Source of the DNA: Patescibacteria group bacterium
GTDB lineage: Bacteria; Patescibacteriota; Patescibacteriia; JAQUQO01
Length of the DNA: 64,000 nt
Direction: 5' to 3'
Assembly: GCA_028716045.1 (NCBI GenBank)
Contig: JAQUQO010000001.1
Location: 64,942 to 128,941, forward strand
The position numbers and the translations under genes are program-made. The notes under the pieces were generated by a model, which did not search any database, was not told the DNA's origin, and worked only from the letters and a program-made list of their open reading frames with translations. Shown piece by piece: positions 13,090-64,000 of this stretch (position 1 is its first letter; the number at the start of each line of letters is the position of its first letter).

Positions 13090-14844
13090 ATGCTTGTCAA
13101 AAAAAAGTTATTTTTAGAGATAACTGTCCTAACGGTATTTTTTGTCGTGACGGTTATTTTTTTATTTCCCTATTTTGTCCAAGCGCAAGTTGACACAGGA
13201 CTGGGTTATTTAGAAAGTTCCGGTTTGGCAGTTACCGATATCAGAATAACCATCGCGCGGATTATCCGTATCGCTCTCGGGCTTTTAGGGGCGATCGCCA
13301 CGGTGATAATTTTATATGGCGGATTTCTTTGGATGACCGCCGCCGGCAATGAGGAAAAAATGGAGACCGCCAAAAAAATTTTAAAGAACGGGGCTATTGG
13401 ACTGGCGATAATTATTACTTCTTTTTCCATCGCCAGTTTTGTTTTAAATTCACTTCTTAGGGCCACGGGCGTTACGGTCGGGGGCGGGGAGACGCCGGCA
13501 ACGGGCGCGGGCGGCGGGGGTTTGGGGTTTGGCATTATCCAAAGCCATTATCCGGCCCGCAATGCCAAAGAGATACCTCGCAACACAAAAGTTGTCGTTA
13601 CTTTCAAAGAATCAATCAAGGCAGATACTCTTATTAAAGACGGGGCTGATGAAGGCGAAATCCCTGGAGATTCACTTTCTGATCGTCTGATTACCACCAG
13701 CGTGCGTATTATTAAAAAAGGCGACTCCTTTCAAACGGGACCGTTTGTAGAGGCCTCGGCCATGGCAACAAGCGATAATAAAACTTTTGTTTTTAAGCCC
13801 TTGGATCTTTTGGGCAGTTCCTCTGTTTCTACTGATTATATCGTTCTTCTTTCTAATGACATCAAGAAAGCGGATGGCAAAAATGCTTTTAGCGGCGCCG
13901 ACCGGTGTGAAAATAATTCGGGGGTATATTGTTGGGGGTTTACCGTGAGCACTTTTGTTGATATCACCCCACCCCAAGTGGTAAATGTTTTTCCGGCAAA
14001 CGATTCCGAGGGCAAAAATCCGGTAGCGCGGAACGCCGTAGCGCAGATAAATTTTTCCGAACCAATTGACCCTTTGTCCGCCGCTGGCGTCTTTCCTCCC
14101 TTTGAGAATATTAGCGTAAAGGAAAATGGGGTGGCAAAAGAGGGTGGATATAATATAGGCAATGAGTACCAAGCAGTGGAATTTATTCCCAATGTTCTTT
14201 GCGGGCAGAATTCCTGCGGGCAAGATGTTTTTTGTCTGCCGCCCAACGCTCAATTAACAGCTTTGGCCAAATCAATTGACCCGGAAAAAGTGAGTTTCCC
14301 GTACGGGGGAGTGGTTGATATGTGTGACAACCCCTTGGATGGCGACGGCGACGGGGCGGTTGATAAAAAAGAAGGAGATAATTATCCGGATAATTATTCC
14401 TGGTCTTTTGCTACCAGCGATGAGGTTGATTTAACCTCGCCAGCCGTAGAAAAAATAATTCATCAAAATAAAGATAATACCGGAGAATTCATCTCTCCGC
14501 CGGATGGCGTGAGCGATATTTTGGATAATATTAATAAAACAGAACCCATAGAAATATATTTCAGTAAAGCGATGATGGTTAGTTTAATAAATAATTCTAA
14601 CGTGGTCATCGAGCCGCAGGACGCTAAGTGGTATGGCTGGTTTTACCCGATTTCTAAAAATGAAAGCGTGGAAGTTGATGGCCGAACGTTAAGGAAAACG
14701 CGGACCAGCTTAAAACACGATATCTTTTTTGAATCCAGCGGTTATTGGCCGAGTATTTCTTCACAGCTTAAAGATGTTTACCAAAATTGTCTTTGGGACT
14801 CGGCGAACAAGAAGGTCCCCGGTCCGGAGATAGTGACGCCGTAA
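13090..14844 (+). CDS. Membrane-anchored extracellular protein with N-terminal VirB2/TrbC-type pilin-like two-helix domain and Ig-like region
   Basis: After a signal/TM comes GLGYLESSGL...IRIALGLLGAIATVIILYGGFLWMTAAGNEEKMETAKKILKNGAIGLAIIITSFSIASFVL (helix-loop-helix, res about 36-122), then a Gly linker and beta-rich domains. The N-domain is paralogous to that of the next gene. Confidence 0.65.
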   Translation: MLVKKKLFLEITVLTVFFVVTVIFLFPYFVQAQVDTGLGYLESSGLAVTDIRITIARIIRIALGLLGAIATVIILYGGFLWMTAAGNEEKMETAKKILKNGAIGLAIIITSFSIASFVLNSLLRATGVTVGGGETPATGAGGGGLGFGIIQSHYPARNAKEIPRNTKVVVTFKESIKADTLIKDGADEGEIPGDSLSDRLITTSVRIIKKGDSFQTGPFVEASAMATSDNKTFVFKPLDLLGSSSVSTDYIVLLSNDIKKADGKNAFSGADRCENNSGVYCWGFTVSTFVDITPPQVVNVFPANDSEGKNPVARNAVAQINFSEPIDPLSAAGVFPPFENISVKENGVAKEGGYNIGNEYQAVEFIPNVLCGQNSCGQDVFCLPPNAQLTALAKSIDPEKVSFPYGGVVDMCDNPLDGDGDGAVDKKEGDNYPDNYSWSFATSDEVDLTSPAVEKIIHQNKDNTGEFISPPDGVSDILDNINKTEPIEIYFSKAMMVSLINNSNVVIEPQDAKWYGWFYPISKNESVEVDGRTLRKTRTSLKHDIFFESSGYWPSISSQLKDVYQNCLWDSANKKVPGPEIVTP

Positions 14845-23800: not shown

Positions 23801-25203
23801 CATTAAATATGGACTTGCTGTTAAACCGAGGAATAAAGCAATTGGAATTTGAAAAATTTAAAGGCCTAGCCAACAATCCAATAACTGGAAATTTTGTTTT
23901 ATGCGTTTTTGACGCTGAAAATTATAAGAAGAATATTTGTAGCAGTTCCGCTTGCGGTGGCGATTGCGGGCATGCGGATAATAGTTGGTCGGATTTTTGC
24001 CCGTCAGCTAGACCAAACAGCGACCAACCGAATGAACAATGTTCGGGTGGTTCCTGTAATCAACAGTCGGGGAGTATCTTGGGTAAATTTAGCTGTCGTT
24101 ATACAGATACTTGTGGCAATTCGTGTTTGCTGACGGGGTTTGGTTGTTGCAATGGTTCTGTCTATGATTTAGGGGTGGAAAAATGCGAAAATAATCAAAT
24201 ACTTTGTCAGGAAACAGGCAGTGGTCAGACAGACAATGTGCCACCGGAAGATAAAATGGATTCTTGCTATAATAAATGTTGCGATAACGATGAGTATTGC
24301 TCTTCTGCCACTCAATCTTGCGTGGAATGTGAGAAAGACAACCATTGCAGTGATAATGATAAAGATAAGTTTTGTGTTAATTATGAATGTGTGGAATGTC
24401 GGGAGAATGCTAATTGTATCGGCGGAAAAATTTGTTTAAATAATCAATGTGCCGACGCGCCACAGTGCCAGGTTGACAGTGATTGTAAGGTAATGGGGGC
24501 AAATGCAAAATGTGTTAATAAAAAATGTGGGTGCTCCTCCAGCTGTTCAGGCAAGCAGTGCGGTGATGACGGTTGTGGCGGGGATTGCGGAGAGTGTCGG
24601 GAGAGCTGGAGTTGTAGCGGTAATACGTCAGTACACAAAACATCGTCTTGTAAGAATAATCAATGTACAGAAGAGCGGATTGATTGTAGTAATAAGGGTG
24701 GATGCGATTCAGCGACTGGTAAATGTAAGGGTTGCACATCGGTGGAGCATACTTCCAAAAACGCCGTTAAATATACTAAATGTTTTGATGGTGACGCTTG
24801 GTGGGTGGATGGTTGCGGTCAAAAAGATGGTCTTTATGAAAATTGCAGTGATGTAGAGATTTGTGAGAAGAATGAGGCCGAGCCGGCGGGATGTGAGTGT
24901 AAATACGGAGATTGTACTTCAAATGTTTGTGTTCCTCGACCGGGCCTAGAACTTTGTGTGGAAGGAACATGTACTTATCTTCGCGAGTGTGTTTATGGTT
25001 GTTTTACGGAACCGCGGCAATGCGATAACGTTTGTTATGGCGGCGAATGCGTTGAGTGCAATCCGAAAGGCACCTCTTGCCATAATACGACGTCAACGGA
25101 CGGGGCTTGTAATGGAAGAATATGCGAGATTTTAGGATGTCAAAAACATTGGGTTTGTAATACTGCCGGTAAAAAAGTTTATGAGTGTGGTAGTTGTCCA
25201 TAA
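14872..25203 (+). CDS. Giant (3443 aa) secreted cysteine-rich adhesin-like protein with N-terminal pilin-like anchor, IPT/TIG repeats and Myxococcus-type Cys-rich repeats
   Basis: It is a single uninterrupted 10.3-kb ORF. The N-terminal domain is paralogous to 13090 (…LIGGFKWMTAAGNEEKLAGAKKLLLNGAIGL…). There are at least 4 IPT/TIG-like repeats (…GNYLTIKGEGFG…, PGICEVSPREGVEGGDLNISGKGFG…). Repeats of CG(D/N)G..x..E(E/D)CDDGN...GDGCS..C follow across about 18.9-20.2 kb. The C-terminal 900 aa are packed with CxxC/EGF- or follistatin-like cysteine knots. Confidence 0.8.
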   Translation: MKSRKLTIKILLAASLLLAIFFLGKPVLAQVDAGLGYLEQSGLGTADIRVTIANIIRIILGFLGTLAVVIVLIGGFKWMTAAGNEEKLAGAKKLLLNGAIGLVIVLFSFGIASFVISRLMQATGGGGGGVVGGEVPGGGVFYPNNLVVKSITPQGPVPIRNVKVRVIFNKEIKPESVTGKIEVRRANDDSEAAGNFDIGSRSVEFSPSAACPEPNQNLKCFDSNTEYRVEIKEGVKSADDKDLKCGGAYPKCNGFFTTGDLVDVTPPTGVITNPDDGGSFSVDDSVLLQAATKDDSGIGLVEFYVDGRLIDSDGPEGPTASTYLAEGYWETAGVELLSRHEIYAQVFDINDHKTNTDKIYALARAKHCFNGIKDEKEEGVDCGGEREAKDYCGACAGGDCDRADKDAGTCAAPDNTFCASGYCESTTCKCQIHLKISNIYSGDKNDFAGLNPNGSPGNYLTIKGEGFGRSLGQVIFLGSDLSSDDKIAALASCSSAWQDKQVVVEIPAGVVDGSIKLITGNKAEDSTDDAYGPIINDFQLNDSKRPGICEVSPREGVEGGDLNISGKGFGDQAGALYFGSEILKKINSWQDGKISSVIPNFNLGDYLVLIKAGEEFSNGVNFSLIEGKSVGPHVDYLNPEKGRKGQYVTIVGSRFGSGQGTVNFINRAKGNAILASTDFPAACQSSWWRDNYVIVRVPEIGDGTYDLVLTTAKNRDSNPVPFEVTGDPLTPGICNLNPDNGLVNTKVNISGGGFASLGSESRIDFWQNKKAEAVSWSDDKIFTTVPPDTQTGPVFVTSNEKKDGANLVSNRIPFRVGACEKDSCLEGETCCGDGICRGTCFDEISKAKYRWYFNTGELPKIPQVVEECAANSAPSPVPFSKFGNTDVCLNVIPSARFSVPMQYETLIKENILFEECATGAEGKMICIPVEDYSIAISSSKDSESGKDRFEIYPGGKGSGVNLKSNTSYRVVLTTALRGADTEGKTGANMIANVEECGQGNAYCWGFKTGDKLCDIGDINVLPSPNTLRSADAQSDYEVVVRAKDNSCWGINPFAYDWWWIIADPSKADVTNAELDGKGLPEQIVTAKNETLPDRPTQVMADTEDKLGDGELHINYAFPAVINHSPACQNGICSNAEISATFNVQLENYEDNILLYKCAEESCKYLSEIPVAYTSEKIAKTGGEEVNEKITLTILGENEFLEKDTWYRVQVKGGDNGVKSKGGERSLIGGNDGADYSWKFQTRDNDKICDVEQVEVFPRKTTLYYIGQRKELTSSVSGPEDACGNGQSLAVRTNNPDTGASLDNYNWQWESSVPNLVTLTGSALGRVAPWDGELIDANPIIGGACSSKCLRVGSKTGGAICGNGVWEKGEDCDGGGGCSAKCLSAGSVSPAVCGDGYIGAPDKKYEYKNYLTDLRAGRLPADFKSFGEECDDGKHCANGAYCSSDTECELVMRGFCGTPANFELCKDNNWATFDKDGKKLESILDKKCQPRSSDSCSGQCLNEGAAFELGTCGNGQIGGGEDCDDGNRQPGDGCSAACLNEGSAAGAAVCQNAIVESKWEDCDEGAGNNPAAGCSNSCLNEGSRVTPCAYFFDKIVCGRQGYCQWDEMSEDDPSDDLCVYNNVCESKTEIKCLGLEACRWVDNECHKAICGDGAVDISEDCDDGNLRAGDGCSAKCVKEGASLTYTNASVCGDGEIKTGEECDSGSGDGKKDPYQAVTAIDSTPTSAIIKASVNNAAGKKISCDGEGCAEVEVVCVCSDDDYCEGYSENLACNQVNRCCYPRPTIVAVKPAHDNDPEEPNACPNGVLEVEFDQQMDLASLAENIKLYHLQLNTPCNQEALSWHEKLGKWAKNMFAKIGLAAVPEYWCPVAGAVRTVTLDNGGNKINKAEFVPNDILDVNNTYRLFVKIDNETTAAITEGVRSLTGGVGVKEVDAAGGNTHFKIDESTGRMEESSGNFDRYFFAHFVTGMEICQVEQVVFKRPAEGGKVIDPYIFRRAADEEIFEVEAQTENGQPLRPFPEYHWSWSWQPGETGLVKVSSQDKYCSITKKDCSDKEVGTQCSVADGICVLSDIQTITPENNSGDTTLTVTAEILNDELNKPATKGEKVEGVIDIKNRICENLWSSAQNDEYKWLEASTYLFESDLLKISPISGNFSTWYCRDAGNPDKTEDDLPDLNIITVAEEGTGIREYLFKDPSTPAAVGFRILPNLKHLSLLNWYKEQEGLSGNPQTMGTIDGYSALRDGNTVYINFANNSTKCFNADSCFIDAIYTNVLAVSFTETGGQNIQNIFNQLVKYLKFNESFYPHGPGSSSRSFYSNNAIANAAKAQLLRDTRRWEDLTDIAATLNNYAENHSGQYPKIEAGSFLPGLTISAWPSWNTVLGNNLGMALPEDPKNEFSADCSEGTFLDEPFNAATCWSSKGAFYCPQNSHIYWYNHRADGQYNLAGEFEFNANEETAEYLWRLDSAKQNYQLLRNIYITVSSDAAGGPSCNSTPASPIKGVCGDGYIDLNEVCDGAGYFEIKDNNNYPCRAYYTCKSDCSAKIYKDSSGKEVEIKTSSEETNLAASICQYVGRCGDGIVSGPETCDDGVERNGQYGRCPKSCRQSDAVKCGDYNIDKPFEVCDKGGKTEYGGTKRENSCRWDCLAYGPYCGDKVVEEEYGEVCELGEIVTPQENCPIVDGYQQFKKYQCSSDCQKWNLVADCSSLGQQCGNKIKEGTEECDDGKNTGDKDQNGIPDGNEDACNNDCKLTVCGDSKIQNPNGLGQKEECDLGAGVNGVSCREKLPYSEGINEAPQQCTYCDANCRSVRVQGPYCGDGIIDVGHEECDGNNNLEYCEDGIRVRKLTCNNSCDWDKGKECEYVGEGESCTVGGGDEQVCDAGMGCVNGKCQKCFDNNGRVKPECQAVSGFIKPFDYCTNNSQCLQAYDLSWKCSSALKLCLPETIITAGLYGKSCPGGLTQHGGLCYYRASNNQVTDGKCPTLNMDLLLNRGIKQLEFEKFKGLANNPITGNFVLCVFDAENYKKNICSSSACGGDCGHADNSWSDFCPSARPNSDQPNEQCSGGSCNQQSGSILGKFSCRYTDTCGNSCLLTGFGCCNGSVYDLGVEKCENNQILCQETGSGQTDNVPPEDKMDSCYNKCCDNDEYCSSATQSCVECEKDNHCSDNDKDKFCVNYECVECRENANCIGGKICLNNQCADAPQCQVDSDCKVMGANAKCVNKKCGCSSSCSGKQCGDDGCGGDCGECRESWSCSGNTSVHKTSSCKNNQCTEERIDCSNKGGCDSATGKCKGCTSVEHTSKNAVKYTKCFDGDAWWVDGCGQKDGLYENCSDVEICEKNEAEPAGCECKYGDCTSNVCVPRPGLELCVEGTCTYLRECVYGCFTEPRQCDNVCYGGECVECNPKGTSCHNTTSTDGACNGRICEILGCQKHWVCNTAGKKVYECGSCP

Positions 25204-25906: not shown

Positions 25907-25944
25907 AAATATAACATACAATTTATTATTTAATTTTAATTCTT

Positions 25945-45910: not shown

Positions 45911-48661
45911 ATGTTTAAACAACATAAAAAACTCATTCTATCCTTAATCTTGTCCGCGACGATAATTATCGCGGGCGGTTTTCTTATCGGAAATTTTGTT
46001 CACGCGGAAGACCCAGCGGCCACCATAAAAGACAGCTCCACTGCCACGATTCTTCGACTCACCCTCGGTTACATAGTGGAACTTTTTATTTTTCTTGGCG
46101 GTCAGCTTTTAGTTTTACTTCTGAAAGTTTTAAAACTTTTGGCCGGTTATAATGATTTTATTCGCGCCGAACCGGTCCAGTTGGGTTGGGTGGTTATCCG
46201 CGATTTAAGCAACATGTTTTTTATTCTCATCTTGCTGGTTATCGCTTTTGCCACCATCCTGCGGGTGGAATCTTATCAATATAAGAAACTTCTGCCTCGC
46301 CTTCTCATCATGGCGATACTCATAAATTTTTCCAAAACCATCTGCGGATTGTTTATAGATTTTGGGCAGGTGATAATGCTCACTTTTGTCAATGGGTTCG
46401 CGGCGGCTACGGATGTCAATCTTACTGTTGGCTTAGGTATTGATAAAATATTATCCCTGCCGAAAGATTCCTCGGCCACGGTTAATGCTTTAACTATAGT
46501 GGCGGCGTATCTCTTAGCTTTGATTTATATTGTAGTCACTGTTATAACCGTCGCCATTATTTGCTTTACGCTGGCCTATCGCATCGTGATGCTTTGGATT
46601 TTAGTGGTGCTTTCCCCTCTGACTTTTTTATTAAGCGCTTTTCCGCAGGGGCAGAAATTCGCTTCGCAATGGTGGGATGAATTTTCCAAGACCATTGTCA
46701 TCGGTCCGATTTTAGCTTTCTTTTTATGGCTATCTTTGGCGGCCATGCAACCAGCGGCGGATAATCCCAGAAACTCCAGTTTAACCAGGACATTAACCAC
46801 CGAGCAAGAAGAGGATGTGGGAGAAACGGCAACTGGGGACACCGTTTCGCGAGCCATTAGCCAAGCTGACGACTTGAGTGTTTTTGCCACCTTTATTGTG
46901 GGTATCGCTTTAATGTGGGGTGGTATTTATATGTCGCAGAGAATCGGAGGTGAAGTTGGTAGTTTTGCCTCTGGTAAGGCCAGGCAATGGTCGGTGGGTG
47001 CGGCTAGAGGAGCAGCAGGCGCGGCTAAATGGGCCGGCGGTAAATTATGGGGTGGGACGAAAGTTGGAGCAGGCGCACTTGATAGATTGCAAGGGGGCGT
47101 AACGGGCATACAATTCTCTAAAATTCCCGAAAGAATTAAAGCCGGGTTTGCTACCAAAAAAGAAATGGAGGAAAAAGAGATTGCCAAGAAGGCCTTGGCA
47201 ATTCAGCGCCGGGGAGCCGGAGCTGGTTGGTTGCCGGCGTATATGGCGTTTGCCACTCCGGACAAAGCTATTATGGAATATGGTGGTGTGAAGGGAAGAT
47301 TAAAGGCGGCTAATCAAACTCGCCGCATTTTACCGGGGTTGGAGAGTTATAGACAGAAAAAACAGGAAGCGGATATTAAGAGAGCTGATTATAAAAAATT
47401 AGAGGGCGAAAATAAAACGTTGACTGATAAAATAGAAAAACAAGCTGATTTAGAAAAAGAACAGAAGATTTCAGCTGAGAATTTTGGTAGGTTCGGTACT
47501 TCCACCGTGATGTTAGACAAAGTAGGAGACAGAGATATTATTGAAAAATTAGAAGAAGAAAGGGAGCGATTAAGGATACAAGCCGGTGTTCCCGGCGCAA
47601 GCGGAAAAGATAAAAAAGAATTTGAGTATTTAGACGCGATTTTAAGCACTCCCGAAGTTAAACTTTCCGCTTCGGAGTTTAATAAATATGTCGGCAATAA
47701 AAATCCTCTCGCTTTTGAAAATGAAAGGAGTAGGGTGAAAAAAGAAAAAGACAAAGCAGAGGAAAGGTTAAACAGATTTATCGCTAATAATCCCGGATTC
47801 ACAAGAGGAGAAGCAGAAAATACAATAAAAACTAACCAAAACGTAATAGGAAATATTAAAGAAGATGTGAGAAGGATAGAATCGGAATATCTGCCTAATA
47901 TTCCCAAGCATTTAGTGTTTGATGTGGAGGCCAAAAAGGCCGAAGCCGAAGCGCTTAAAAATATTCCGTCCACCGCTGGCTTTCCGGATTTAATGAGAGC
48001 TCTGAAAAAGGCTTTGGCGGATGGTGATGCCTCTACCGCCAACGTTATTTCTAAAAAATTGAGTGAAAATGGGCAGATGGGCGATATGTTGAAAGAAATG
48101 GGTAAAACAGAAGATATAGCTGGTTTTAAGGAGTTTGTTGATAAGGAGCTTTTAAAGGTTAATAAGGACGATAAAAATGCTGCTTATAGTGTTGGCAGTG
48201 AAATGAGCTTGTATGCGGAAAAATCCGGTGACGCCGTTTATGGCGGCATATTTAGAGCAGATCCATCAACCGGTAAGGTTGATGCCGTCAGTGATAATGA
48301 GGCGGTTGATATTATAGCCAAAAGAATATCCAGTAAAGACGCTTCCCAAGCCGTTAAAGTTAAAATATCTTCTTATGTTAAAACGGATATTTTAGGGAAA
48401 AAGAGTTTAACTCCTTTGGGAGCGACAGTGGTTTCTACTTTTGCTCCCGATTTTGAAAAAATGATTTCTAAAGGAACTTTTCCTCCGGCTTTACAAAAAG
48501 CCTTGAGAGATGTTAAGGGCAGTATTGAAAAAATTGTTGGAGTTGGCACATTAACTAAAGAATTGGCCGATAAAATAACCGCGGTGGGTTATGCCACCGG
48601 AGAAGAAGAAATACCGCCTAAAGCTGCGGATTTAATCGCAAAATTGACGGGAGGCCCGTAA
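45911..48661 (+). CDS. Polytopic membrane protein, VirB6/TrbL-like, with about 600-aa charged coiled-coil C-terminal extension
   Basis: A signal or first TM helix, then about 6 TM helices within res 40-290. The remainder is Lys/Glu-rich and predicted helical. Its position at the head of the PrgI-VirB4 block fits VirB6-like, but the topology is only eyeballed. Confidence 0.5.
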   Translation: MFKQHKKLILSLILSATIIIAGGFLIGNFVHAEDPAATIKDSSTATILRLTLGYIVELFIFLGGQLLVLLLKVLKLLAGYNDFIRAEPVQLGWVVIRDLSNMFFILILLVIAFATILRVESYQYKKLLPRLLIMAILINFSKTICGLFIDFGQVIMLTFVNGFAAATDVNLTVGLGIDKILSLPKDSSATVNALTIVAAYLLALIYIVVTVITVAIICFTLAYRIVMLWILVVLSPLTFLLSAFPQGQKFASQWWDEFSKTIVIGPILAFFLWLSLAAMQPAADNPRNSSLTRTLTTEQEEDVGETATGDTVSRAISQADDLSVFATFIVGIALMWGGIYMSQRIGGEVGSFASGKARQWSVGAARGAAGAAKWAGGKLWGGTKVGAGALDRLQGGVTGIQFSKIPERIKAGFATKKEMEEKEIAKKALAIQRRGAGAGWLPAYMAFATPDKAIMEYGGVKGRLKAANQTRRILPGLESYRQKKQEADIKRADYKKLEGENKTLTDKIEKQADLEKEQKISAENFGRFGTSTVMLDKVGDRDIIEKLEEERERLRIQAGVPGASGKDKKEFEYLDAILSTPEVKLSASEFNKYVGNKNPLAFENERSRVKKEKDKAEERLNRFIANNPGFTRGEAENTIKTNQNVIGNIKEDVRRIESEYLPNIPKHLVFDVEAKKAEAEALKNIPSTAGFPDLMRALKKALADGDASTANVISKKLSENGQMGDMLKEMGKTEDIAGFKEFVDKELLKVNKDDKNAAYSVGSEMSLYAEKSGDAVYGGIFRADPSTGKVDAVSDNEAVDIIAKRISSKDASQAVKVKISSYVKTDILGKKSLTPLGATVVSTFAPDFEKMISKGTFPPALQKALRDVKGSIEKIVGVGTLTKELADKITAVGYATGEEEIPPKAADLIAKLTGGP

Positions 48662-48665
48662 ATTT

Positions 48666-49901
48666 ATGTGGGATAAAATAAACAACCAAAAAGTTTTAGA
48701 TGATTTTAAAAGGAGCTTGGATAATGATATTTTGGAATACGATTTGAATGACGCCAAAATTCTTTATACTTCTCTCCGTGATATTTTAGTTAAAGAAAAT
48801 ATTAATGAAACGGGAGGGGCGATGGCCGAGGAATATTATAAATTAATGCGGCAGGCCGGGTTTGTGTCCCTTGCTCTTTTGGAATTTGATGATGCTAAAC
48901 AATTGTTTGCCGAAGGTCTGCCGACTATGTTAGAGTTGAGCGAATTTGACGTTTTGAATGAATTAAAGAAATTTTTTATCTACCGTTTTCCGATACTGGC
49001 CGACCGATTGCTCGCCAAAAACGACTTGCAAAAAATTATAGAGGAGAATAACAAAAGAATAGCGAACGCCGCCGGAGCGGCTATCGGAGAAAAACAACTT
49101 TTTATTGTCAGCGATTGGATTAAAAATTATTTGGCTTATATTAATCAGGCCGAACCGGAAATTTTAAAATTGCAGGAATATCTGGCGCGGTCGGAGGCGA
49201 TGCAAAAAACCAGCGAAGAAGAAAAAAATAAGATAGGCCTTTTGTTGAAGATTTATGATTATTTGCGAATGGCGCAGTTCAAACCGTTTTTGTTAGATGA
49301 GGAATTAACAATAGTTGAGGACGGAGAAACATATACTGTCACCGAGGGGCGGGCGGAAAAGGTGGACCCCAATATAAAAAAATTGATGGCGGATATCAGG
49401 GAAATTTTGGAAAAGGCGCGCGCTCCGGAAGAAGTGGCGACGGCTTACAGCGCGGTCGGTTGGCAAAGGATTTCTAAACCACAAATTTTAAAGAAATATA
49501 AAACTCTGGAAGCGGCGGCAGATAATCTATTTAAAAAAATCGCCGGTAATTTATTGGGGAGCGCGGACAAAGACGAAGCGCTATCCATTTTATATTATTT
49601 AGCAGAGGAAAATAAATTGATGACGTTTTTAAAATCACCGGCCAATTTTAGCGGGCTTAAGGCGTTATTTGCCAAATCAAAAAAATTAACCGACGCCCAA
49701 AAAAACGCCAACATTCCGGAGCTCACGATTTTTTTACAGGCCTTTTTGCGTTATATTTTTGAAGAGTTGCTGGAGATGAGTGTTAATGAAGCGGCTCGCG
49801 AAGGCCAGCGCTTGGCCAACGCACTTAAAAAATCCGGTGGAGCCGATTATTTTGATATTTCCTATTTTGATTTAAATAAAGGGCAATTTGTCTGGAAATA
49901 A
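48666..49901 (+). CDS. Hypothetical soluble protein in T4SS-like module
   Basis: The 411-aa ORF has no TM helix. It is tightly packed, 4 nt after the VirB6-like stop. Confidence 0.5.
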   Translation: MWDKINNQKVLDDFKRSLDNDILEYDLNDAKILYTSLRDILVKENINETGGAMAEEYYKLMRQAGFVSLALLEFDDAKQLFAEGLPTMLELSEFDVLNELKKFFIYRFPILADRLLAKNDLQKIIEENNKRIANAAGAAIGEKQLFIVSDWIKNYLAYINQAEPEILKLQEYLARSEAMQKTSEEEKNKIGLLLKIYDYLRMAQFKPFLLDEELTIVEDGETYTVTEGRAEKVDPNIKKLMADIREILEKARAPEEVATAYSAVGWQRISKPQILKKYKTLEAAADNLFKKIAGNLLGSADKDEALSILYYLAEENKLMTFLKSPANFSGLKALFAKSKKLTDAQKNANIPELTIFLQAFLRYIFEELLEMSVNEAAREGQRLANALKKSGGADYFDISYFDLNKGQFVWK

Positions 49902-51321
49902 TTCTATGGCCGTTGGCAATAAAAAAAATAATAATCATTCGGCAGTTAATACGTTTTCTGATGATGAGGTTTTAGTAAAAGGGGGTGACGGAAAATTTTA
50001 TATTTTAAGAGGAGCAGAATTAGCGCCCTACGAAGCGGCGAGAGGAGAGAGGCCGGTTTTGGATTACAAAAGAATCGCCGAAGAAATAATAGATAAGAGT
50101 GGGAGTGTGGCACTCACGCCGGTTAGGCGGGACCAGCTTTTTAATGTTATCGTTTCCGGCCTAAAGGGCGTGCGCGACAGTTTAGAAATAAAAAATATCC
50201 TTGTAAAACCAATTGGCGTCGGCGGATTAGAATTAAATGAAGACAAGACAAAATTAATTTTGGATTTAATAAAACTCGCCTTGGAAGATAAATTAGGAGC
50301 TGGAACGTCCCGCGGAGAAAAACAGGAAGGGAAAATCGCCTCGGTGGTCTCCGTTACTCCGGCCAGCGATATAAAAAGTTTAGAGAAGCTGGTTAATGAG
50401 GTGGTGGGGATTATCAAAAAGGATTATCCCAAAGAGCTAGAGATGAGATTAAGAGGAATAATATTGACATATCTTAAAGATATTAGAGATAAAAGAGAAA
50501 CGCGTGAAACACTAGAGAGGCAAATAGCCAAGGGCGGAATGTCGTTTGAAAAGGGGCGGGCGGAAAAGCTGGTTAATTTTATTGACGATTTAGAAAAACG
50601 TCGTCAAGCGGGGGAGATGGGGCTGAAAAAAGAATTTCCATCACCTAAAAAAGAATTCCTGGCTGTTCCCGTGAAAGAAGCGTTGGTCGGTGAGTCAAGC
50701 AACAAGGCGGATGTTTCTCAATTTGTGGCTAAAGAAAGGGAGGCCTTTAAGGAGTCAGTTATTTTGAAAGATAAATATTTAGCGCCGCCCCCGCTGGCCA
50801 TTGTTAAGAAGGAAGAAGGCGCTGAGCTTCCCTCAAGGGCATTGGAAAAAGAACTGTCAAAGCCGGGGTTACAAAAATTTGTTCCACCGCTTCGCCCCAA
50901 AATAACGCCCCAGCCGCCGCCAGCCTCCGCACCTTTAAAGCAGACCTTGGTTGTAGAAAGAAAACCGCAGATTCAGGATATAAAATATAAACCGCGGCTG
51001 GTCGGTCCCATAGAAGAACTTCGAACTTTGACTCTCCGCGATTTTCGCAAGCTTTCAGAAGACCCGAAAATCGCCACAGAGAAAATTCAAAATAAGATTA
51101 ACCTTTTAGAAGAAGAATCCTTTGCCAAAAGGATGGAAGGAGCGAGGGCTTGGCAGAAAAGTCCTCTCAATCAGGAATATTTGAAGGTGGGGCAGAAGAG
51201 CTTGCTGGAGGGCAAATCCGTTGAACAAATAATCGCGGAAAATTTAAGTAAATCAAAAGAAAGCTTAAATAAAGCGGAATTTAATGCTATAATGGGATTG
51301 AATAAGAGAATCAGATTATAA
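49888..51321 (+). CDS. Hypothetical protein in T4SS-like module (Pro-rich central segment)
   Basis: The 477-aa ORF overlaps the upstream gene by 14 nt. The central PPLRPKITPQPPPASAPL motif suggests an envelope-spanning or peptidoglycan-interacting role. Confidence 0.5.
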   Translation: MSGNNSMAVGNKKNNNHSAVNTFSDDEVLVKGGDGKFYILRGAELAPYEAARGERPVLDYKRIAEEIIDKSGSVALTPVRRDQLFNVIVSGLKGVRDSLEIKNILVKPIGVGGLELNEDKTKLILDLIKLALEDKLGAGTSRGEKQEGKIASVVSVTPASDIKSLEKLVNEVVGIIKKDYPKELEMRLRGIILTYLKDIRDKRETRETLERQIAKGGMSFEKGRAEKLVNFIDDLEKRRQAGEMGLKKEFPSPKKEFLAVPVKEALVGESSNKADVSQFVAKEREAFKESVILKDKYLAPPPLAIVKKEEGAELPSRALEKELSKPGLQKFVPPLRPKITPQPPPASAPLKQTLVVERKPQIQDIKYKPRLVGPIEELRTLTLRDFRKLSEDPKIATEKIQNKINLLEEESFAKRMEGARAWQKSPLNQEYLKVGQKSLLEGKSVEQIIAENLSKSKESLNKAEFNAIMGLNKRIRL

Positions 51322-51329
51322 TTTTTAAT

Positions 51330-51767
51330 TTGTCTATCATGCGCCAGTTTGTTGTTCCACAATTTATTGACGTTGAGGATAAAATAATCGGCCCGGTTAC
51401 CGTCAGACAGTTTATTATTATGCTGGTGGACGCGGGGTTGATATTTTTGTCGTATAAACTTTTTGATTTTGCCCTTTTCGTGATAGTTGGATTAATTTTG
51501 TTTGGTATTGGAGGAACGATAGCCTTCCTTAAAGTTAATGGCCAGCCGTTTCATTTTTTTATGTTGAACTTAATCCAAACCTACCGCCGGCCTTGGCTGA
51601 AGATTTGGAACAAGGAACTGGAAAATTGGGAAATAAAGGAAAAACTAAAAATAACGGAAGTGAAATTACCGGAAAAACCCAAAGTTAAACCGAAAATTTC
51701 CGCCTCGCGGCTGGCCGAGCTTAGCTTGATTGTCAATACTGGCGGCGTTTATGAAGGGCAAGATTAA
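51330..51767 (+). CDS. PrgI/VirB3-like small two-TM T4SS protein
   Basis: A 145-aa product with two adjacent TM helices (res about 28-80), then KVNGQPFHFFMLNLIQTYRRPWLKIW. It sits directly upstream of VirB4, matching the VirB3/PrgI position and topology. Confidence 0.55.
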   Translation: MSIMRQFVVPQFIDVEDKIIGPVTVRQFIIMLVDAGLIFLSYKLFDFALFVIVGLILFGIGGTIAFLKVNGQPFHFFMLNLIQTYRRPWLKIWNKELENWEIKEKLKITEVKLPEKPKVKPKISASRLAELSLIVNTGGVYEGQD

Positions 51768-51807
51768 TTATCAAAATTTTGGATTCCAAATATAAAATAA
51801 AACTGCC

Positions 51808-52482
51808 ATGCCGGAAAAAACTCCTAAAAAATTAGCCCCATCAACCCAAAAGTTTCTTGATATTTCCGAAATCAGAGATGATTGCGTTATTTTAAAGGAT
51901 GGAACTTTGCGAGCTGTTTTGTTGGCCTCCTCTATCAATTTTGCCCTAAAATCCGAAGATGAGCAGAATGCTTTGATTTCCGCTTATATGAGTTTTCTAA
52001 ATTCTTTTGATTTCCCCCTGCAAATCGTGATTCAGTCACGCAAGCTGGATATTGAGGGCTATTTGGAAAGATTGAAAGATACGGAAAAAACTCAAACCAA
52101 CGAATTATTAAAAATACAAATTGCCGACTATCGCGAATTTATAGCCGAGTTAGTAGAAATCGGAGACATTATGAGCAAGAGTTTTTATGTGGTTATACCT
52201 TATAACCCTCTTACTGATAAACGCAAAGGATTTTGGACAAGAGCGCAGGAACTCTTTACTCCGGCGATAATTTTAAGATTGGGAGAAGATAAATTTCAAA
52301 AAAGAAGACATTATTTGATACAAAGGGTTGGTCATATCCAGTCGGGCCTTGAGAGTATTGGCCTTCATTCGCAATTATTAGATACCCAAAGTTTAATCGA
52401 GCTTTATTATAATGCTTATAATCCGGCAACCTCCAAAGTCCAGAAATTAGTTGAGATAAGCAAGCTTCAAGTTGAGGATTAA
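51808..52482 (+). CDS. T4SS-associated protein; possible detached N-terminal segment of VirB4
   Basis: A 224-aa product, 22 nt upstream of VirB4 in a different frame. Its pattern FLDISEIRDDCVILKDGTLRAVLLASSINFALKSEDEQNALISAYMSFLNSFDFPLQIVIQS resembles the extreme N-terminal region of TrbE/VirB4 proteins, as recalled rather than aligned. Confidence 0.45.
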   Translation: MPEKTPKKLAPSTQKFLDISEIRDDCVILKDGTLRAVLLASSINFALKSEDEQNALISAYMSFLNSFDFPLQIVIQSRKLDIEGYLERLKDTEKTQTNELLKIQIADYREFIAELVEIGDIMSKSFYVVIPYNPLTDKRKGFWTRAQELFTPAIILRLGEDKFQKRRHYLIQRVGHIQSGLESIGLHSQLLDTQSLIELYYNAYNPATSKVQKLVEISKLQVED

Positions 52483-52504
52483 GTGCTTAATATAAAATTT
52501 TAAT

Positions 52505-54361
52505 ATGGCTTTTGCCTTGTTTAAAAAGAAAGAATCTCCCGAAAAGCCAAGCGGTCAAGCGGCGGAAGAAGCGGCCAAGAGTGAAAGAATTCTGTTGGAA
52601 GAGGAAAAAATTTACCGCCGTGGGATTATTTCGGTCCGCGATATCATCGCTCCGGAATCAATGAAAGTGGAGCCGACTTTTATAGTCTTAGGTGACAAAT
52701 TCGTCCGCACCATATTTATAATGACTTATCCGAGGTATATCAATATCGGCTGGTTTGCCCCCATTATTAATCTTAATGTGACTTTGGATGTGGCGATGTA
52801 TTTTTATCCGGTTAAATCGGAAATTATTTTGAAACAGTTGAAAAAGAAAGTCGGGGCTTTGGAAGCGCAGATTATTTCCGACTCCGAAAAGGGCGCTCCC
52901 CGCGACCCCATCAGAGAAACGGCTTTGCGGGACATAGAAAAATTGCGCGATGACCTTACCCAAGGGGTGGAGCATTTTTTTCAATTTGCTCTTTACATCA
53001 CTATTTATGCTGATAGTAAAGAAGCCCTGGATAATATCTCTGAGGATGTAGAATCATTATTTGGAGGAAAACTTATTTATTCCAAAAAAGTTTTATATCA
53101 GGCGGAGCAAGGATTTAATTCCACGCTTCCTTTGGCCAACGATGAGTTGATGATTACCTTTAATATGAACACTTCTCCTTGCGCCTCTTCTTTCCCTTTT
53201 ATTTCTTCGGAATTAACGTCGGACAACGGCATTTTGTACGGTATCAACAGGCACAATAACAGCTTGATTTTATTTGACCGATTTTCTTTACCCAATGCCA
53301 ACGCCGTGGTTTTTGCCACTTCCGGCGCCGGCAAGAGCTACGCCATCAAATTGGAAGTCCTGCGCAGTATGATGATGGGGACAGACGTGTTGGTGATTGA
53401 CCCGGAGAGGGAATATAAGCATCTGGCGGAGGCGGTAGGCGGGGCTTATATTGATATCTCTCTTGGCTCTGACAGCAAAATTAACCCCTTTGATTTGCCG
53501 CGGGCGATGGGGGAAGACACTACCGCAGAAGATATTATCAGAAGCGCCGTCATCACTATCAAGGGTTTGGTACGCCTGATGCTTGGCAAACTTTCGCCGC
53601 AGGAAGATACGATTATTGACCAAGCGTTGCTCCAGACCTACGCCAAAAAAGATATTACGCCGGAAACCGATTTATCGCAGGGGGTGGAAGTCCCGCTAAT
53701 GAAAGATTTTGAAAATATTCTGGAAGGCATGGAAGGCGGAGGGGATTTAGTAATGCGTTTAAGAAAGTATACCGAGGGAACTTTCGCCGGATTGTTCAAT
53801 CATCCGACTAATGTGGATATCAAAAATCAGTTAGTGGTTTTCAGTGTTAGGGATTTAGAAGATGAGTTAAGGCCCTTGGCTATTTACAACATCGTCAATT
53901 TTATCTGGAATGTTGTCCGGAGCGAGCGCAAAAAGAGGATTTTAGTAGTTGATGAGGCCTGGTGGCTGATGCAGAATGAAGATTCAGCCAAGTTTATCTT
54001 TGCTCTTGTGAAACGTTGCCGCAAATATTACATGGGAGTCACCACGATTACGCAGGATGTCAGTGATTTTTTGACTTCTGATTATGGTAAAGCCATTGTG
54101 ACTAATTCCTCTTTACAACTTTTATTAAAGCAATCGCCGGCAGCCATTGATTTAGTGCAAAAAACATTTCTTTTAACCGAAGGCGAGAAATACCTGCTTT
54201 TGGAATGCGGCGTCGGCGAGGGAATATTTTTCGCCGGCTCCAAGCATGCGGCCATAAAAATAGTCGCCTCTTATACCGAAGACCAAATCGTTACCACTAA
54301 TCCCCAGCAATTAATAGAAATAGAGGAGGCGAAAAAAGAGTTTGCCAGAAAAAATAAATAG
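52505..54361 (+). CDS. VirB4/TrbE-family T4SS ATPase
   Basis: The N-region LGDKFVRTIFIMTYPRYINIGW, Walker A VFATSGAGKSYAIK, Walker B RILVVDEAWWLM, and the ITQDVSDF C-motif. Confidence 0.85.
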   Translation: MAFALFKKKESPEKPSGQAAEEAAKSERILLEEEKIYRRGIISVRDIIAPESMKVEPTFIVLGDKFVRTIFIMTYPRYINIGWFAPIINLNVTLDVAMYFYPVKSEIILKQLKKKVGALEAQIISDSEKGAPRDPIRETALRDIEKLRDDLTQGVEHFFQFALYITIYADSKEALDNISEDVESLFGGKLIYSKKVLYQAEQGFNSTLPLANDELMITFNMNTSPCASSFPFISSELTSDNGILYGINRHNNSLILFDRFSLPNANAVVFATSGAGKSYAIKLEVLRSMMMGTDVLVIDPEREYKHLAEAVGGAYIDISLGSDSKINPFDLPRAMGEDTTAEDIIRSAVITIKGLVRLMLGKLSPQEDTIIDQALLQTYAKKDITPETDLSQGVEVPLMKDFENILEGMEGGGDLVMRLRKYTEGTFAGLFNHPTNVDIKNQLVVFSVRDLEDELRPLAIYNIVNFIWNVVRSERKKRILVVDEAWWLMQNEDSAKFIFALVKRCRKYYMGVTTITQDVSDFLTSDYGKAIVTNSSLQLLLKQSPAAIDLVQKTFLLTEGEKYLLLECGVGEGIFFAGSKHAAIKIVASYTEDQIVTTNPQQLIEIEEAKKEFARKNK

Positions 54362-61558: not shown

Positions 61559-62899
61559 TTATAACAATTCCAAAGCTTGAAACAGTGAAGTGGCTTCTAT
61601 CAGTTTCAATTTAGTCGTGATTTTCTGGCTTAATTTAGGTAAAATGACCGTTTTAAATCCCAATTTTTCTATCTCCTTTAATCGTCTCTCCAGTTGATTT
61701 ATGCCGCGTATTTCCCCACCAAGGCCTATTTCCCCTAAAATGACCGTATTCGCGTCTAAACCCTTATTTTTGGCCGCTGAAGCAATGGCCAGGGCCACGG
61801 CCAGGTCCGCAGCCGGTTCCTGGATTTTTAGCCCGCCGGCGACGTTCAGATAGACATCGGAAGCATTAAGATTTATTTTAGCCCTTTGAGTTAATACGGC
61901 AATTAAAACCTGCAGGCGGTTAGGGTTAAAGCCCTCGGATTTTCTTTGGGGATAGCCGAAGTTAGTTCTATTTACCAGCGCCTGTATTTCTACAAGGAGC
62001 GGACGCGAACCCTCTAAAATACAGGTGATTGCTGAACCCGGTGACGGAGTATTTTTATTTTGTAAAAAGATTAAAGATGGATTTTTTACTTCTTCCATAC
62101 CACCGCCCGTCATTTCAAAAACGCCGACTTCGCCGGCGGAGCCAAAGCGATTTTTCACCGTGCGAAGCAGACGATAAGATTGATAACGCTCGCCTTCCAG
62201 ATAAATTACGGTATCAACCAAGTGTTCCAAAGTTTTTGGTCCGGCTACCAATCCTTCCTTCGTCACGTGTCCGATGATGAATACAGGGATATTATTTTTT
62301 TTGGCGGTTTCCAGAAGTCTGACCGTGGAAGCCCGGACTTGGCTGATGCTTCCGGCCTCGCTCGGAATATCCGGAGAGTAAATCGTTTGGATGGAATCAA
62401 TAATCGCGAGAATGGGCTTTTCTTTTTCCAGAGTGGCCACGATGGCGTTAACATCTGTTTCTCCTAAAAATGAAATATTTTTTCCGGAGAGTTTTAGCCG
62501 CTCCAAACGCAGTTTAATTTGTTCTCCAGATTCCTCACCGGAAACATAAAGCACGTTTCTGGTGTCGGACACCTTCGCGGCGATTTGGAGAATCAATGTT
62601 GATTTGCCGATTCCCGGTTCCCCGCCCAGAAGAGTTAAACTGCCCGGAACAATCCCTCCGCCGACGACTGCGTCAAATTCTTCCAAGCTGGTTTTTATTC
62701 TGGGGAATTGCAGGTGGTTTATTTCGGAAAATTTTACAGTTTTGCCGGCCACCGCCAGGGATTTTTTTTCTTCCTTAGTCGTAGTCGTCGCCACTTGTTC
62801 CAGCGTGCCCCAAGCCCCGCATTCCAAACACCGCCCGCCCCATTTTGGAGTTTGCGCGCCGCATTTGGAACATTCATATATTAAAAAGGATTTTGGCAT
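61559..62899 (-). CDS. radA: DNA repair protein RadA/Sms
   Basis: An N-terminal C4 zinc finger (CSKCGAQTPKWGGRCLECGAW), the RecA-like Walker A GGEPGIGKSTL, the KNRFG motif and a Lon-like C-terminal domain. Confidence 0.92.
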   Translation of the reverse strand: MPKSFLIYECSKCGAQTPKWGGRCLECGAWGTLEQVATTTTKEEKKSLAVAGKTVKFSEINHLQFPRIKTSLEEFDAVVGGGIVPGSLTLLGGEPGIGKSTLILQIAAKVSDTRNVLYVSGEESGEQIKLRLERLKLSGKNISFLGETDVNAIVATLEKEKPILAIIDSIQTIYSPDIPSEAGSISQVRASTVRLLETAKKNNIPVFIIGHVTKEGLVAGPKTLEHLVDTVIYLEGERYQSYRLLRTVKNRFGSAGEVGVFEMTGGGMEEVKNPSLIFLQNKNTPSPGSAITCILEGSRPLLVEIQALVNRTNFGYPQRKSEGFNPNRLQVLIAVLTQRAKINLNASDVYLNVAGGLKIQEPAADLAVALAIASAAKNKGLDANTVILGEIGLGGEIRGINQLERRLKEIEKLGFKTVILPKLSQKITTKLKLIEATSLFQALELL

Positions 62900-62905
62900 A
62901 AAATT

Positions 62906-64000
62906 TTATTGCTGTTTTCCGCCAAGCTGTTGGCAGAAATTATTATAGTATTTGCTGGCGCTTCTGGCGTATTCTGCCGCTTGTTCGTTTTTGCCTTTGA
63001 CGCCGCTTGCTCCGCCGTTATAGCCGGCGAAAGTCAGGGCAATATCTCCTCCGGACATAGGAAGGATAGTTTGAGATATTAATTTTCCCGAATATTCCAT
63101 GGAGTTCGTTTTGCCGTTTGTTCCGTGGAAGAAATCTACGCAAGATGAGGAAGCCTGCGCGCAGTGGCCGCAAGGCGGGATTTGGCAAGTAAAACCATAG
63201 TCGCCGTTTCCTTGACCAATGGACGTTTTTTCCTCTGCGGAAGCGTTCTTTTGTATTGTTTTAGTGGAGCAACTATAACCAAGGCCATCCAAAGTGTCGG
63301 GCATTAATTGGGTTACGCCTACTTCTCCGCAGGGGCCCCTTTTGGCTTGGGCGTTACCGCGATTTTCTTGTTGGAAAATCGCGGCCATGATTAGCGGGTC
63401 CACTGCCGCTCTCTTGGCCGCAGTGAGAACATCGGCATCAATAACTTGCGCTAATTTGGTTTCATCATATCCTTTGCACGGTAAAACACTGCCCTTTAAT
63501 TCTTTGGCGCTTTCAATGCTTTCTTTAACGGCAGCTTCCAAATAACGAATACTTAACGGTTTTAATTTTACCAGCCCCGGGTTTATTTCATAGAGAATCA
63601 GGTATGACCCCAGCGCTAAAAATAATCCGATGACTGCTCCTTTGATATAATCTTTCGCCTGATTAACCCTGTCCGGGCTTCCTCCGGCCGTCAGCCAAAT
63701 TGTACCTCCGATGGCAATCATAATAATTGCCACAATACCGACGATGCCTAGGGCGTAATTGTAGATAGCGGCGATGTATTCGGCTATCCACGGGATTTGC
63801 AGGTATTTTTTCCCGCCGATTTCTAATTCGGTAGGACCGGAAAATTTACTAAAATCGCCAATGGGTATTTGCAGGTCGGGCAGAACAATTTTCGGCGCGG
63901 GTTCGCCGGAAGGCGGCGGAGTTTGTGGGGCCGCAGGTTTAATACATTTATATTTGTTGGAAGTATAGGGTTCGCCGCCTACAATCCGCACATCTGTTCC
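62906..64000 (-). CDS. Lytic transglycosylase (SLT domain, VirB1-like) fused to N-terminal VirB2/TrbC-type pilin-like domain; 5' end may lie outside window
   Basis: IAAIYNYALGIVGIVAIIMIAIGGTIWLTAGGSPDRVNQAKDYIKGAVIGLFLALGSYLIL matches the helix-loop-helix domain of the 13090 and 14872 products. The C-terminal half has the SLT catalytic motif IFQQENRG...GEVGVTQLMP and ends GYNGGASG. The first in-window start is GTG at 63991, and the frame stays open to the window edge. Confidence 0.7.
   Translation of the reverse strand, partial: GTDVRIVGGEPYTSNKYKCIKPAAPQTPPPSGEPAPKIVLPDLQIPIGDFSKFSGPTELEIGGKKYLQIPWIAEYIAAIYNYALGIVGIVAIIMIAIGGTIWLTAGGSPDRVNQAKDYIKGAVIGLFLALGSYLILYEINPGLVKLKPLSIRYLEAAVKESIESAKELKGSVLPCKGYDETKLAQVIDADVLTAAKRAAVDPLIMAAIFQQENRGNAQAKRGPCGEVGVTQLMPDTLDGLGYSCSTKTIQKNASAEEKTSIGQGNGDYGFTCQIPPCGHCAQASSSCVDFFHGTNGKTNSMEYSGKLISQTILPMSGGDIALTFAGYNGGASGVKGKNEQAAEYARSASKYYNNFCQQLGGKQQ

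Follow-up and report, generated by a model that had tools for sequence, protein, structure and literature searches.

A pilin-family membrane hairpin fused to a lysozyme-like SLT/GH23 domain in a Patescibacteria gene adjacent to radA

Analysis of a 64,000-nucleotide stretch from a Patescibacteria group bacterium (contig JAQUQO010000001.1, positions 64,942 to 128,941 of the forward strand; hereafter, the window) revealed a gene at its right end, on the minus strand (62906..64000), in which a membrane hairpin of the type IV secretion system (T4SS) pilin family PF18895 precedes a head of the soluble lytic transglycosylase (SLT) type, belonging to glycoside hydrolase family 23 (GH23). In Pfam scans of the fragment encoded in the window, PF18895 (T4SS_pilin) scored 42.5 bits at residues 71-130 (cut-off 26.6; E-value 6.7e-11) and PF01464 (SLT) scored 28.1 bits at residues 193-245 (cut-off 21.3; E-value 1.6e-6). 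A preliminary description of the window had proposed an SLT-type head fused behind a pilin-like hairpin, and with both matches above the curated thresholds the fusion is confirmed. The enzyme itself is ordinary, and what is noteworthy is the apparent use of a pilin-family hairpin as a constant handle for changing wall-degrading heads, in genes that often form arrays next to a DsbA gene at a constant chromosomal position. The explanation favoured here, with moderate confidence, is that the protein is a wall-opening enzyme acting near the cell's own membrane, with the hairpin as a specific docking or sorting module.

Inspection of the open reading frames (ORFs) showed that the minus-strand frame, which ends with the stop codon 62906-62908, is uninterrupted up to base 64000, the last of the window. 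The gene start, suspected from the outset to lie beyond the window end, was located on JAQTRY010000001.1 (locus L001), an 812 kb contig of the Patescibacteria metagenome-assembled genome GCA_028711565.1 that was reached via the neighbouring RadA; there the frame continues for 168 nt (56 codons) to an ATG (L001:8732-8899). The two contigs are identical across the gene, the nearest difference being 10.9 kb off. The full protein, translated from this GenBank entry, has 420 amino acids, and the window holds 364 of its residues (codons 57-420 plus the stop). By eye and by hydropathy, the extra codons encode a signal-peptide-like N-terminus, MKNNLSFLLIKKTVFLMLLLFLSPIIVNA/ADC, which is present in addition to the pilin-like module and does not replace it.

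The signal peptide is followed by a short Cys-rich and then a Pro-rich stretch, and the remainder of this variable, putatively extracytoplasmic segment occupies residues 57-95 (Cys/Pro-rich; 63884..64000, minus). Its mean pairwise identity among full-length relatives was 0.16, and its predicted local distance difference test (pLDDT) scores were low in the full-length AlphaFold2 model, which was built on 37 relatives and had a mean pLDDT of 82.5. The pre-hairpin segment (residues 96-125, LPDLQIPIG...YLQIPW; 63794..63883, minus) is conserved, with a pairwise identity of 0.34 among full-length relatives, and was modelled as two short strands. Between hairpin and head, the alignment of full-length relatives delimited a linker (residues 201-245; 63434..63568, minus) that includes the conserved Cys231. 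Given a signal peptide that looks cleavable and the basic loop of the hairpin, we infer that the N-terminal segment and the head both lie on the extracellular side of the membrane.

The hairpin module spans residues 127-186 (63611..63790, minus), as placed by Pfam, hydropathy peaks and AlphaFold2. Hydropathy and sequence revealed hydrophobic helices at approximately residues 131-160 and 173-195, joined by AGGSPDRVNQAK; in our own delimitation, helix 1 lies at about 63689-63778, the basic loop at 63653-63688 and helix 2 at about 63584-63652, all on the minus strand. AlphaFold2 predicted a hairpin with helices at 111-144 and 149-179 in P0001 numbering (full-protein numbering minus 16). The layout of PF18895, namely a signal peptide, two hydrophobic helices and a short polar loop, is therefore present in the 420-amino-acid protein by hydropathy, sequence and model, but the protein is not a small stand-alone pilin, as 220 residues of linker and enzyme follow the hairpin.

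The SLT/GH23 lysozyme-like head (residues 246-415; 62924..63433, minus) was recognised by Pfam, by profiles against the PDB, by AlphaFold2 and by Foldseek. The PF01464 match covers only profile positions 5-56 of 117, this partial coverage being due to a subfamily insert. End-to-end alignment of 18 full-length relatives showed that Asp257, Glu268, Gly278, Cys280, Gly281, Glu282, Gly284 and Gln287 are invariant, as are Cys300, Cys328, Cys333, Cys336, Cys343, Asp375, Tyr383, Asn384, Gly385, Tyr400 and Tyr408. When 11 insert-bearing heads were aligned with 10 textbook heads (ESSGNPNA...GLMQ...AAYNGGP) borne on the same hairpin, Glu268, Gly284, Gln287, Tyr383, Asn384 and Tyr400 remained invariant across all 21. 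Glu268, which we take to be the catalytic acid of the lytic transglycosylase and g-type lysozyme family, is encoded by the GAA codon at 63365..63367 (minus) and lies at the C-terminal end of a modelled helix (242-253, P0001 numbering). In a check suggested by the preliminary description, the Glu of QQENRG aligned with the Glu of the E-S motif in other enzymes, namely that of RESRA in cod g-type lysozyme, RQESRF in LtgA and QIESSF in MltC, and the quoted motifs QQENRGNAQAKRGPCGEVGVTQLMP and GYNGGASG are present.

Motif II reads GVTQLMP (63299..63319, minus; compare GLMQxMP), with GVTQ in place of the textbook GLMQ and with Gly284 and Gln287 invariant, and motif III reads GYNGG (63011..63025, minus; compare AYNxG), with Tyr383 and Asn384 invariant in the alignments and the PDB profile. 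An insert of about 55 residues separates motif II from the next helix (residues 297-350; 63119..63280, minus; pLDDT about 68-97); it carries five of the eight cysteines that are conserved across the head (Cys300, 328, 333, 336 and 343), and the head is probably stabilised by disulfides. The head is thus a generic GH23/SLT lysozyme-like domain with every family-1 signature. Its chemistry may be either lytic transglycosylation or hydrolysis, the domain labelled "SLT" in PrgK having proved to be a muramidase (PMC11323569).

Structural comparisons were in agreement with this assignment and with a lysozyme-like alpha-helical fold. A profile built from the mixed heads matched MltC (4.5e-18), LtgA (6e-16), Slt70 (1.6e-13) and MltE (6e-11) in the PDB with both lobes aligned, and it also matched phage transglycosylases, g-type lysozymes and EtgA of a type III secretion system. 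A profile of the subfamily only matched lysozyme-like proteins alone, weakly (E-values 0.018-0.15). The head-only AlphaFold2 model had a pLDDT of 91.7 and a predicted template modelling score of 0.90, and 48 of its 50 best Foldseek matches in the PDB were lytic transglycosylases or goose-type lysozymes; the remaining two were the glycoside hydrolase domain of FlgJ and the T7 ejectosome, in which gp16 is the transglycosylase. The best match was Slt of P. aeruginosa (probability 1.00; template modelling score 0.50; E-value 9.5e-3), and lytic transglycosylases also ranked first with the full-length model (E-value about 0.1). Some other comparisons were discarded: a single-sequence phmmer search of the PDB gave chance matches only (troponin, FtsW) and was replaced by the profiles, while hhalign of the family profile with the single E. 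coli Slt70 covered motif II only (E-value 0.07) and was uninformative alone. A homologue search with the 206-amino-acid head alone was empty and missed even the identical P0001, which reflects a limitation of the index and is no sign of uniqueness.

The same fusion, which the preliminary description had advised seeking in relatives, was found to recur there, and the head proved to be the changeable part. A phmmer search of 1.84 billion cluster representatives returned 20,241 proteins at E <= 1e-3, including 4,710 at E <= 1e-10, and a Pfam census was taken of the best 150 representatives together with 12 proteins from the first homologue search (n=162). Counted as matches per family, which may overlap within one protein, T4SS_pilin was found in 156 of the 162 and SLT in 29, followed by VanY (11), Peptidase_M15 (11), 3D (6), Peptidase_C39_2 (4), SLT_3 (3), Amidase_2 (3), Peptidase_M23 (3) and Peptidase_M15_4 (2), with one match each for NlpC/P60, Phage_lysozyme, GDSL lipase, Metallophos and TrbC/VirB2. 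The SLT heads carried by the same hairpin reached a Pfam E-value of 1.7e-30, and glucosaminidase, M15_4 and NlpC/P60 heads turned up in a further search. Long extensions are the rule, as the residues after the hairpin had a median of 219 and numbered at least 40 in 146 of the 150 best representatives and fewer than 40 in four. The label given to such hairpin-hydrolase proteins at NCBI is just "pilin". The pairing of the two domains is already visible in precomputed Pfam annotations, and no paper describing the fusions was found in the full-text literature, a coverage that leaves out subscription journals.

The hairpin is conserved to about the degree of the enzyme that it carries. Among full-length relatives its mean pairwise identity was 0.44, compared with 0.49 for the catalytic lobe, and it averaged 0.49 across the 150 representatives with differing heads. 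In the adjacent genes P0004 and P0006 of locus L007, the module is identical at 119 of 120 positions and the remaining parts are unrelated; in P0007 and P0008, the initial 152 residues are 95% identical, after which the former continues into an SLT-like head and the latter into a VanY/M15 head, or the reverse. Both pairs look like products of recent head exchange, and the pattern suggests recombination or gene conversion that would hold the hairpin constant while the heads change. Since the module is conserved like the catalytic lobe and is near-identical on proteins otherwise unrelated, the hairpin appears to be more than an anchor.

The module was also detected by our own hidden Markov model (HMM) in two further ORFs of the window, giving three in all with the SLT gene: a 584-amino-acid protein (13090..14844, plus), with the module at residues 54-118 followed by Big_5 Ig-like domains, and a giant surface protein of 3443 amino acids (14872..25203, plus), with the module at residues 53-117 followed by Ig-like repeats. 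The earlier statement that the enzyme shares its anchor with the window's giant proteins thus holds for the 3443-amino-acid giant, but not for the 2635-amino-acid one (37935-45842), in which the module HMM did not detect the hairpin. The 584-amino-acid protein directly precedes the 3443-amino-acid giant, which is followed by two TSP3_bac-repeat proteins (25217-26649, plus). The 2635-amino-acid giant (plus strand) contains CBM_4_9 domains and lies directly upstream of a VirB6-like gene.

The relation of this hairpin to true VirB2 pilins is less clear. A Pfam scan of the protein gave no match to PF04956 (TrbC/VirB2), and three relatives matched both PF18895 and PF04956 (the one among the 162 and two from the further search). 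In NCBIfam, sub-threshold hairpin matches to NF045849, a pilin-like conjugal transfer protein of a Mycoplasma integrative and conjugative element, were obtained in 13 of the 18 full-length relatives, and the window protein itself gave a sub-threshold hairpin match to this Mycoplasma pilin-like protein.

Genomic context analyses revealed that the SLT gene belongs to a tight run of genes which encode, in order, an M48 protease, a 205-amino-acid membrane protein, a 417-amino-acid protein, the SLT protein and RadA, with gaps of 7, 18, 1 and 6 nt. The radA gene (61559..62899, minus) begins 6 nt past the stop codon, and the only near-consensus promoter-like site of the run, identified by pattern match only, is upstream of the M48 gene. 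The 417-amino-acid protein (L001:7477-8730) is encoded on the same strand just past the window, and its stop lies one base before the start of the SLT gene. It has an N-terminal hydrophobic helix by inspection, a Pro-rich stretch and then a probable beta-propeller, a label that rests on faint Pfam matches only (PD40, THOC3); phmmer found no PDB match for it.

A tblastn survey of 14 related loci, in which identity of the SLT protein fell to about 28-35%, showed that the SLT gene is directly upstream of radA in all 14. A homologue of the beta-propeller gene was found upstream of it wherever that flank is present, and recG was convergent downstream. A gene for a DsbA-type thioredoxin is inserted between the beta-propeller gene and the SLT gene in L009-L012, so that DsbA is directly upstream there, as it also is in L023; a glucosaminidase, itself hairpin-bearing, is inserted at the pre-radA site in L011, L012 and L014. 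Relatives carry at this site one to three tandem hairpin genes with differing heads (L007:7078-10033; L011:8524-11164; L015:8812-11068; L017:7322-10996), compared with a single copy in the window genome. On a separate contig (L023:825-4898), DsbA is followed by an array of hairpin hydrolases, at least three in number, in the order DsbA, SLT (hairpin), SLT, M15_4 (hairpin), NlpC/P60 (hairpin), a 71-amino-acid ORF and 3D. Proteins with TSP3_bac and Laminin_G_3 domains adjoin this array. Three of the loci (L014, L016 and L017) show the Patescibacteria-type order, with a hairpin-SLT gene before radA and a convergent recG, and are titled "uncultured Gammaproteobacteria bacterium"; they are probably mislabelled. 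A narrow-pattern search of the species genomes, which is no census, gave only six loci, three of them titled Candidatus Uhrbacteria and three uncultured Gammaproteobacteria.

The window also contains a T4SS block (45911..54361, plus), in which Pfam scans identified VirB6/TrbL-like (45911-48661), PrgI/VirB3-like (about 51339-51767), TraC-like (51808-52482) and VirB4-like (52505-54361) genes, all on the plus strand. ORFs of 411, 477 and 210 amino acids (48666-51321 and 54342-54974, plus) had no significant Pfam match, and the 210-amino-acid protein after VirB4 is kept in relatives at 34-36% identity. The VirB4-like gene is intact in the window, with 618 amino acids; at about 53084 the window has one extra homopolymer base relative to JAQTRY010000001.1, where VirB4-like is represented by two genes (214 and 398 amino acids), and one of the versions probably contains an error of assembly or polishing. 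The SLT gene and virB4 lie on opposite strands; the 8.5 kb between the stop of the former and the end of the latter holds radA, a DNA glycosylase gene, recG, a methyltransferase gene and others. A convergent VirB4 block at 7-8 kb was also observed in L009, L011, L012 and L014, and it was not reached in L015 and L017. We read this recurring distance as a product of conserved genome order that includes housekeeping genes, and not as an operon link. By the +/-20-gene window of a published survey, the SLT gene would count as near virB4 (PMC12102498).

That survey found PF18895-type pilins near virB4 in 1,135 assemblies and reported the family as enriched beside virB4 (PMC12102498). Proteins of this family have been treated as small VirB2-like pilins in arrays of 2-11 genes, and VirB1 homologues were mostly unassociated with VirB4 and missing from most VirB2-bearing genomes (PMC12102498, PMC12857230, PMC10633639). 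Both the T4SS and its VirB2-like pilin arrays are widespread among Patescibacteria; the only species tested could not live without them, yet the T4SS has no known function (PMC10633639, PMC11665869, PMC12857230). In the preliminary description, the fusion was taken to connect the pilin-like family with T4SS biology, a conclusion that does not follow from the fusion itself; the link comes from the Pfam name, the few relatives that match PF04956 and the published co-location with virB4 (PMC12102498). The designation "VirB1-like" was right as to the SLT/GH23 class and went too far as to VirB1 specificity. No other recognisable peptidoglycan hydrolase was found among the window ORFs of at least 150 amino acids and the called genes of three overlapping loci, which together span most of the window. 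In a plasmid collection the best matches of the head were SLT genes inside virB operons, but these were weak (E-values 6e-4 to 0.9) and the collection is strongly biased towards such genes.

In the explanation moderately favoured above, the protein would be exported by Sec and its signal peptide cleaved, helix 1 would cross the membrane from outside to inside, the basic loop would remain cytoplasmic and helix 2 would return to the outside. A linker of about 45 residues would then position the head at the membrane's outer face, where the enzyme may cut the N-acetylmuramic acid-N-acetylglucosamine glycan strands of peptidoglycan near the producer's own membrane. Such cutting could open or remodel the cell's own wall locally where envelope-spanning structures, that is, the T4SS or other hairpin proteins, assemble. 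The hairpin would serve as a specific docking or sorting module and not as a passive anchor, and the role would be analogous to that of VirB1 in diderms and of the membrane-anchored PrgK and TraG(pIP501) in monoderms.

Several observations weigh against this explanation. The SLT gene is outside the T4SS operon, the recurring distance to virB4 may be mere conservation of gene order in small genomes, and no VirB1-, TrbN-, TrsG- or CD419-specific NCBIfam model matched any of the 18 full-length relatives at E <= 0.1. When the hairpin was compared by hhalign with VirB2 of Agrobacterium and Brucella plasmids, the result was not significant, and homology to canonical VirB2 is for this reason unproven. 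Glu268 is followed by Asn, where relatives have Ser or Thr, and the strong PDB E-values derive from a profile that includes canonical heads, single-sequence and subfamily-only comparisons being weak. The variety of heads, with a GDSL lipase and a phosphoesterase among them, and their swapping look more like an effector arsenal than housekeeping. Activity, localisation and T4SS dependence of the protein are, moreover, predictions from sequence and models.

The rival that survives best, a tentative possibility, takes the PF18895 hairpin for a true VirB2-type pilin module that would be extracted by the VirB4 machinery; the protein would be polymerised into, or would tip, a T4SS-dependent filament, or would be released, and the heads would degrade the wall of a host bacterium for attachment or feeding. 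F-type and VirB2 pilins have both termini on the pilus exterior, peptides on the C-terminus of F-pilin can be displayed, and VirB2 is dislocated from the membrane by VirB4, all of which would suit such a pilin. A constant module with variable enzymatic heads is the pattern of polymorphic effector families, and the non-wall heads (GDSL lipase, Metallophos), the tandem arrays with several different hydrolases and a hairpin conservation far above the seeming need of a plain membrane anchor point the same way, as does the reported essentiality of T4SS and pilin arrays (PMC10633639, PMC11665869, PMC12857230). However, this copy is a vertically inherited core gene, and its stable position beside radA at about 30% identity indicates that it is not a mobile effector cassette. 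In addition, a folded head of about 200 residues per subunit would be hard to fit into the tight helical packing of a pilus, the module HMM found no small stand-alone pilin in the 64-kb window that could be the major subunit, and the VirB2 homology that this rival needs is the one left unproven by hhalign.

In a related proposal, which we consider unlikely, the hairpin is a T4SS-specific handle that would load giant adhesins and swappable enzymes, such as glycan cleavers, peptidases, amidases and lipases, onto a T4SS-dependent filament or export route, so that the "pilin arrays" of these bacteria would be in part an enzyme-tipped arsenal directed against the host envelope.

Quite unlikely, in our estimate, is a housekeeping autolysin with the hairpin as a mere tether, which would act in growth, division or wall turnover and whose nearness to virB4 would be an accident of gene order. 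The tight co-directional run with the M48, membrane and beta-propeller genes and radA, with its only strong promoter-like site before M48, is consistent with such a role, as are DsbA and glucosaminidase at the same site in relatives, the genes from radA to the methyltransferase that lie between the SLT gene and virB4, and the lack of any match to a VirB1-type model. A simple tether, on the other hand, would not be expected to be conserved like the active-site lobe and to be shared with a giant adhesin-like protein; PF18895 is reported to be enriched beside virB4 (PMC12102498), and head swapping, like the lipase and phosphoesterase heads, is a misfit for a simple autolysin family.

Two further readings were rejected on residue conservation and context. 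It is very improbable that the head is an inactive peptidoglycan-binding module that tethers the membrane or the hairpin's partners to the wall: Asn does replace the Ser of the E-S motif and PrgK has degenerate neighbouring hydrolase-like domains (PMC11323569), but Glu268 and all other signature residues are invariant in the 18 full-length relatives and the 21 heads, which argues for retained catalysis. Least probable of all is a phage-derived lysis protein, either an endolysin with a holin-like or signal-anchor hairpin or a tail-associated transglycosylase, since the PDB profile matches to the phage tape-measure protein gp41 and T7 gp16 transglycosylases and the superficial likeness of a membrane hairpin with a muralytic head to a holin-endolysin pair are outweighed by the lack of flanking phage genes, a chromosomal housekeeping neighbourhood conserved across genomes at about 30% identity, and an N-terminal signal peptide and PF18895 match unlike those of holins.

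Compared with known systems, the protein resembles VirB1 of Agrobacterium and other MPF_T T4SSs in its GH23/SLT head with the conserved Glu and in the proposed task of opening the peptidoglycan. VirB1, however, is soluble, periplasmic and encoded in the virB operon, whereas the window protein is tethered by a hairpin behind a signal peptide and bears the Cys-rich, roughly 55-residue insert; its gene is on the strand opposite to virB4, about 9 kb off, and none of the VirB1-specific models matched the protein. PrgK (pCF10), TraG (pIP501) and TcpG likewise belong to a monoderm envelope, in which they are membrane-anchored and expose an SLT-type domain outside the cell, but they have a single N-terminal transmembrane helix, extra CHAP or LytM domains and genes within the T4SS operon, while the window protein has a pilin-family hairpin, a single head with no CHAP or LytM in Pfam scans, and a gene outside the operon. 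The T4SSs of Patescibacteria are reported to be related to the MPF_FATA class (PMC12102498), and PrgK is brought to the T4SS machine by a partner protein (PMC11323569).

Slt70, MltC, MltE, LtgA and goose egg-white lysozyme share the fold and the signature motifs with the head, and the profile aligned with them over both lobes; these are animal lysozymes or else diderm enzymes that are soluble or anchored as lipoproteins, and the head differs from them in E-N for E-S, GVTQ for GLMQ and the presumably disulfide-rich insert after motif II. In polymorphic effectors such as LXG, Rhs and CdiA, the N-terminal trafficking domain stays constant and the C-terminal head can be swapped. The hairpin proteins are similar in their constant module, unrelated enzymatic heads, near-identical modules and tandem arrays; their heads, however, are mostly wall hydrolases and not nucleases or pore formers, and this copy is a stable core gene. 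The PF18895 pilin arrays of Southlakia epibionticum and Nanosynbacter lyticus TM7x belong to the same Pfam family and phylum, with the same layout of signal peptide and hairpin, and they are tandem with divergent members, as are the hairpin genes described here. The described pilins have been treated as small (PMC12102498), in contrast to the hairpin proteins of this study, which mostly carry long extensions, many of them wall hydrolases.

The fusion of wall-degrading heads to a pilin-family hairpin means that searches for small pilins or for a separate VirB1 would miss or mislabel such proteins, and this offers a possible explanation of why a survey detected no VirB1 in most genomes that carry VirB2-like pilins (PMC12102498). 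Should the hairpin be a docking or sorting module, the fusions would allow a direct approach to the question of how the bacteria open their own wall or a host's; were it only an anchor, they would represent an ordinary family of membrane-bound autolysins with an unusual tether. If the unlikely T4SS-handle proposal were true, the essential and functionally unexplained T4SS of Patescibacteria would gain a role in breaching or remodelling the host wall.

Two further features of the window were recorded. Plus-strand ORFs of 57-83 amino acids overlap the SLT gene, antisense to its conserved coding region. A 589-amino-acid protein (4414-6183, plus) combines MshEN, the N-terminal part of a T2SSE-type ATPase and two FHA domains in an unusual architecture.

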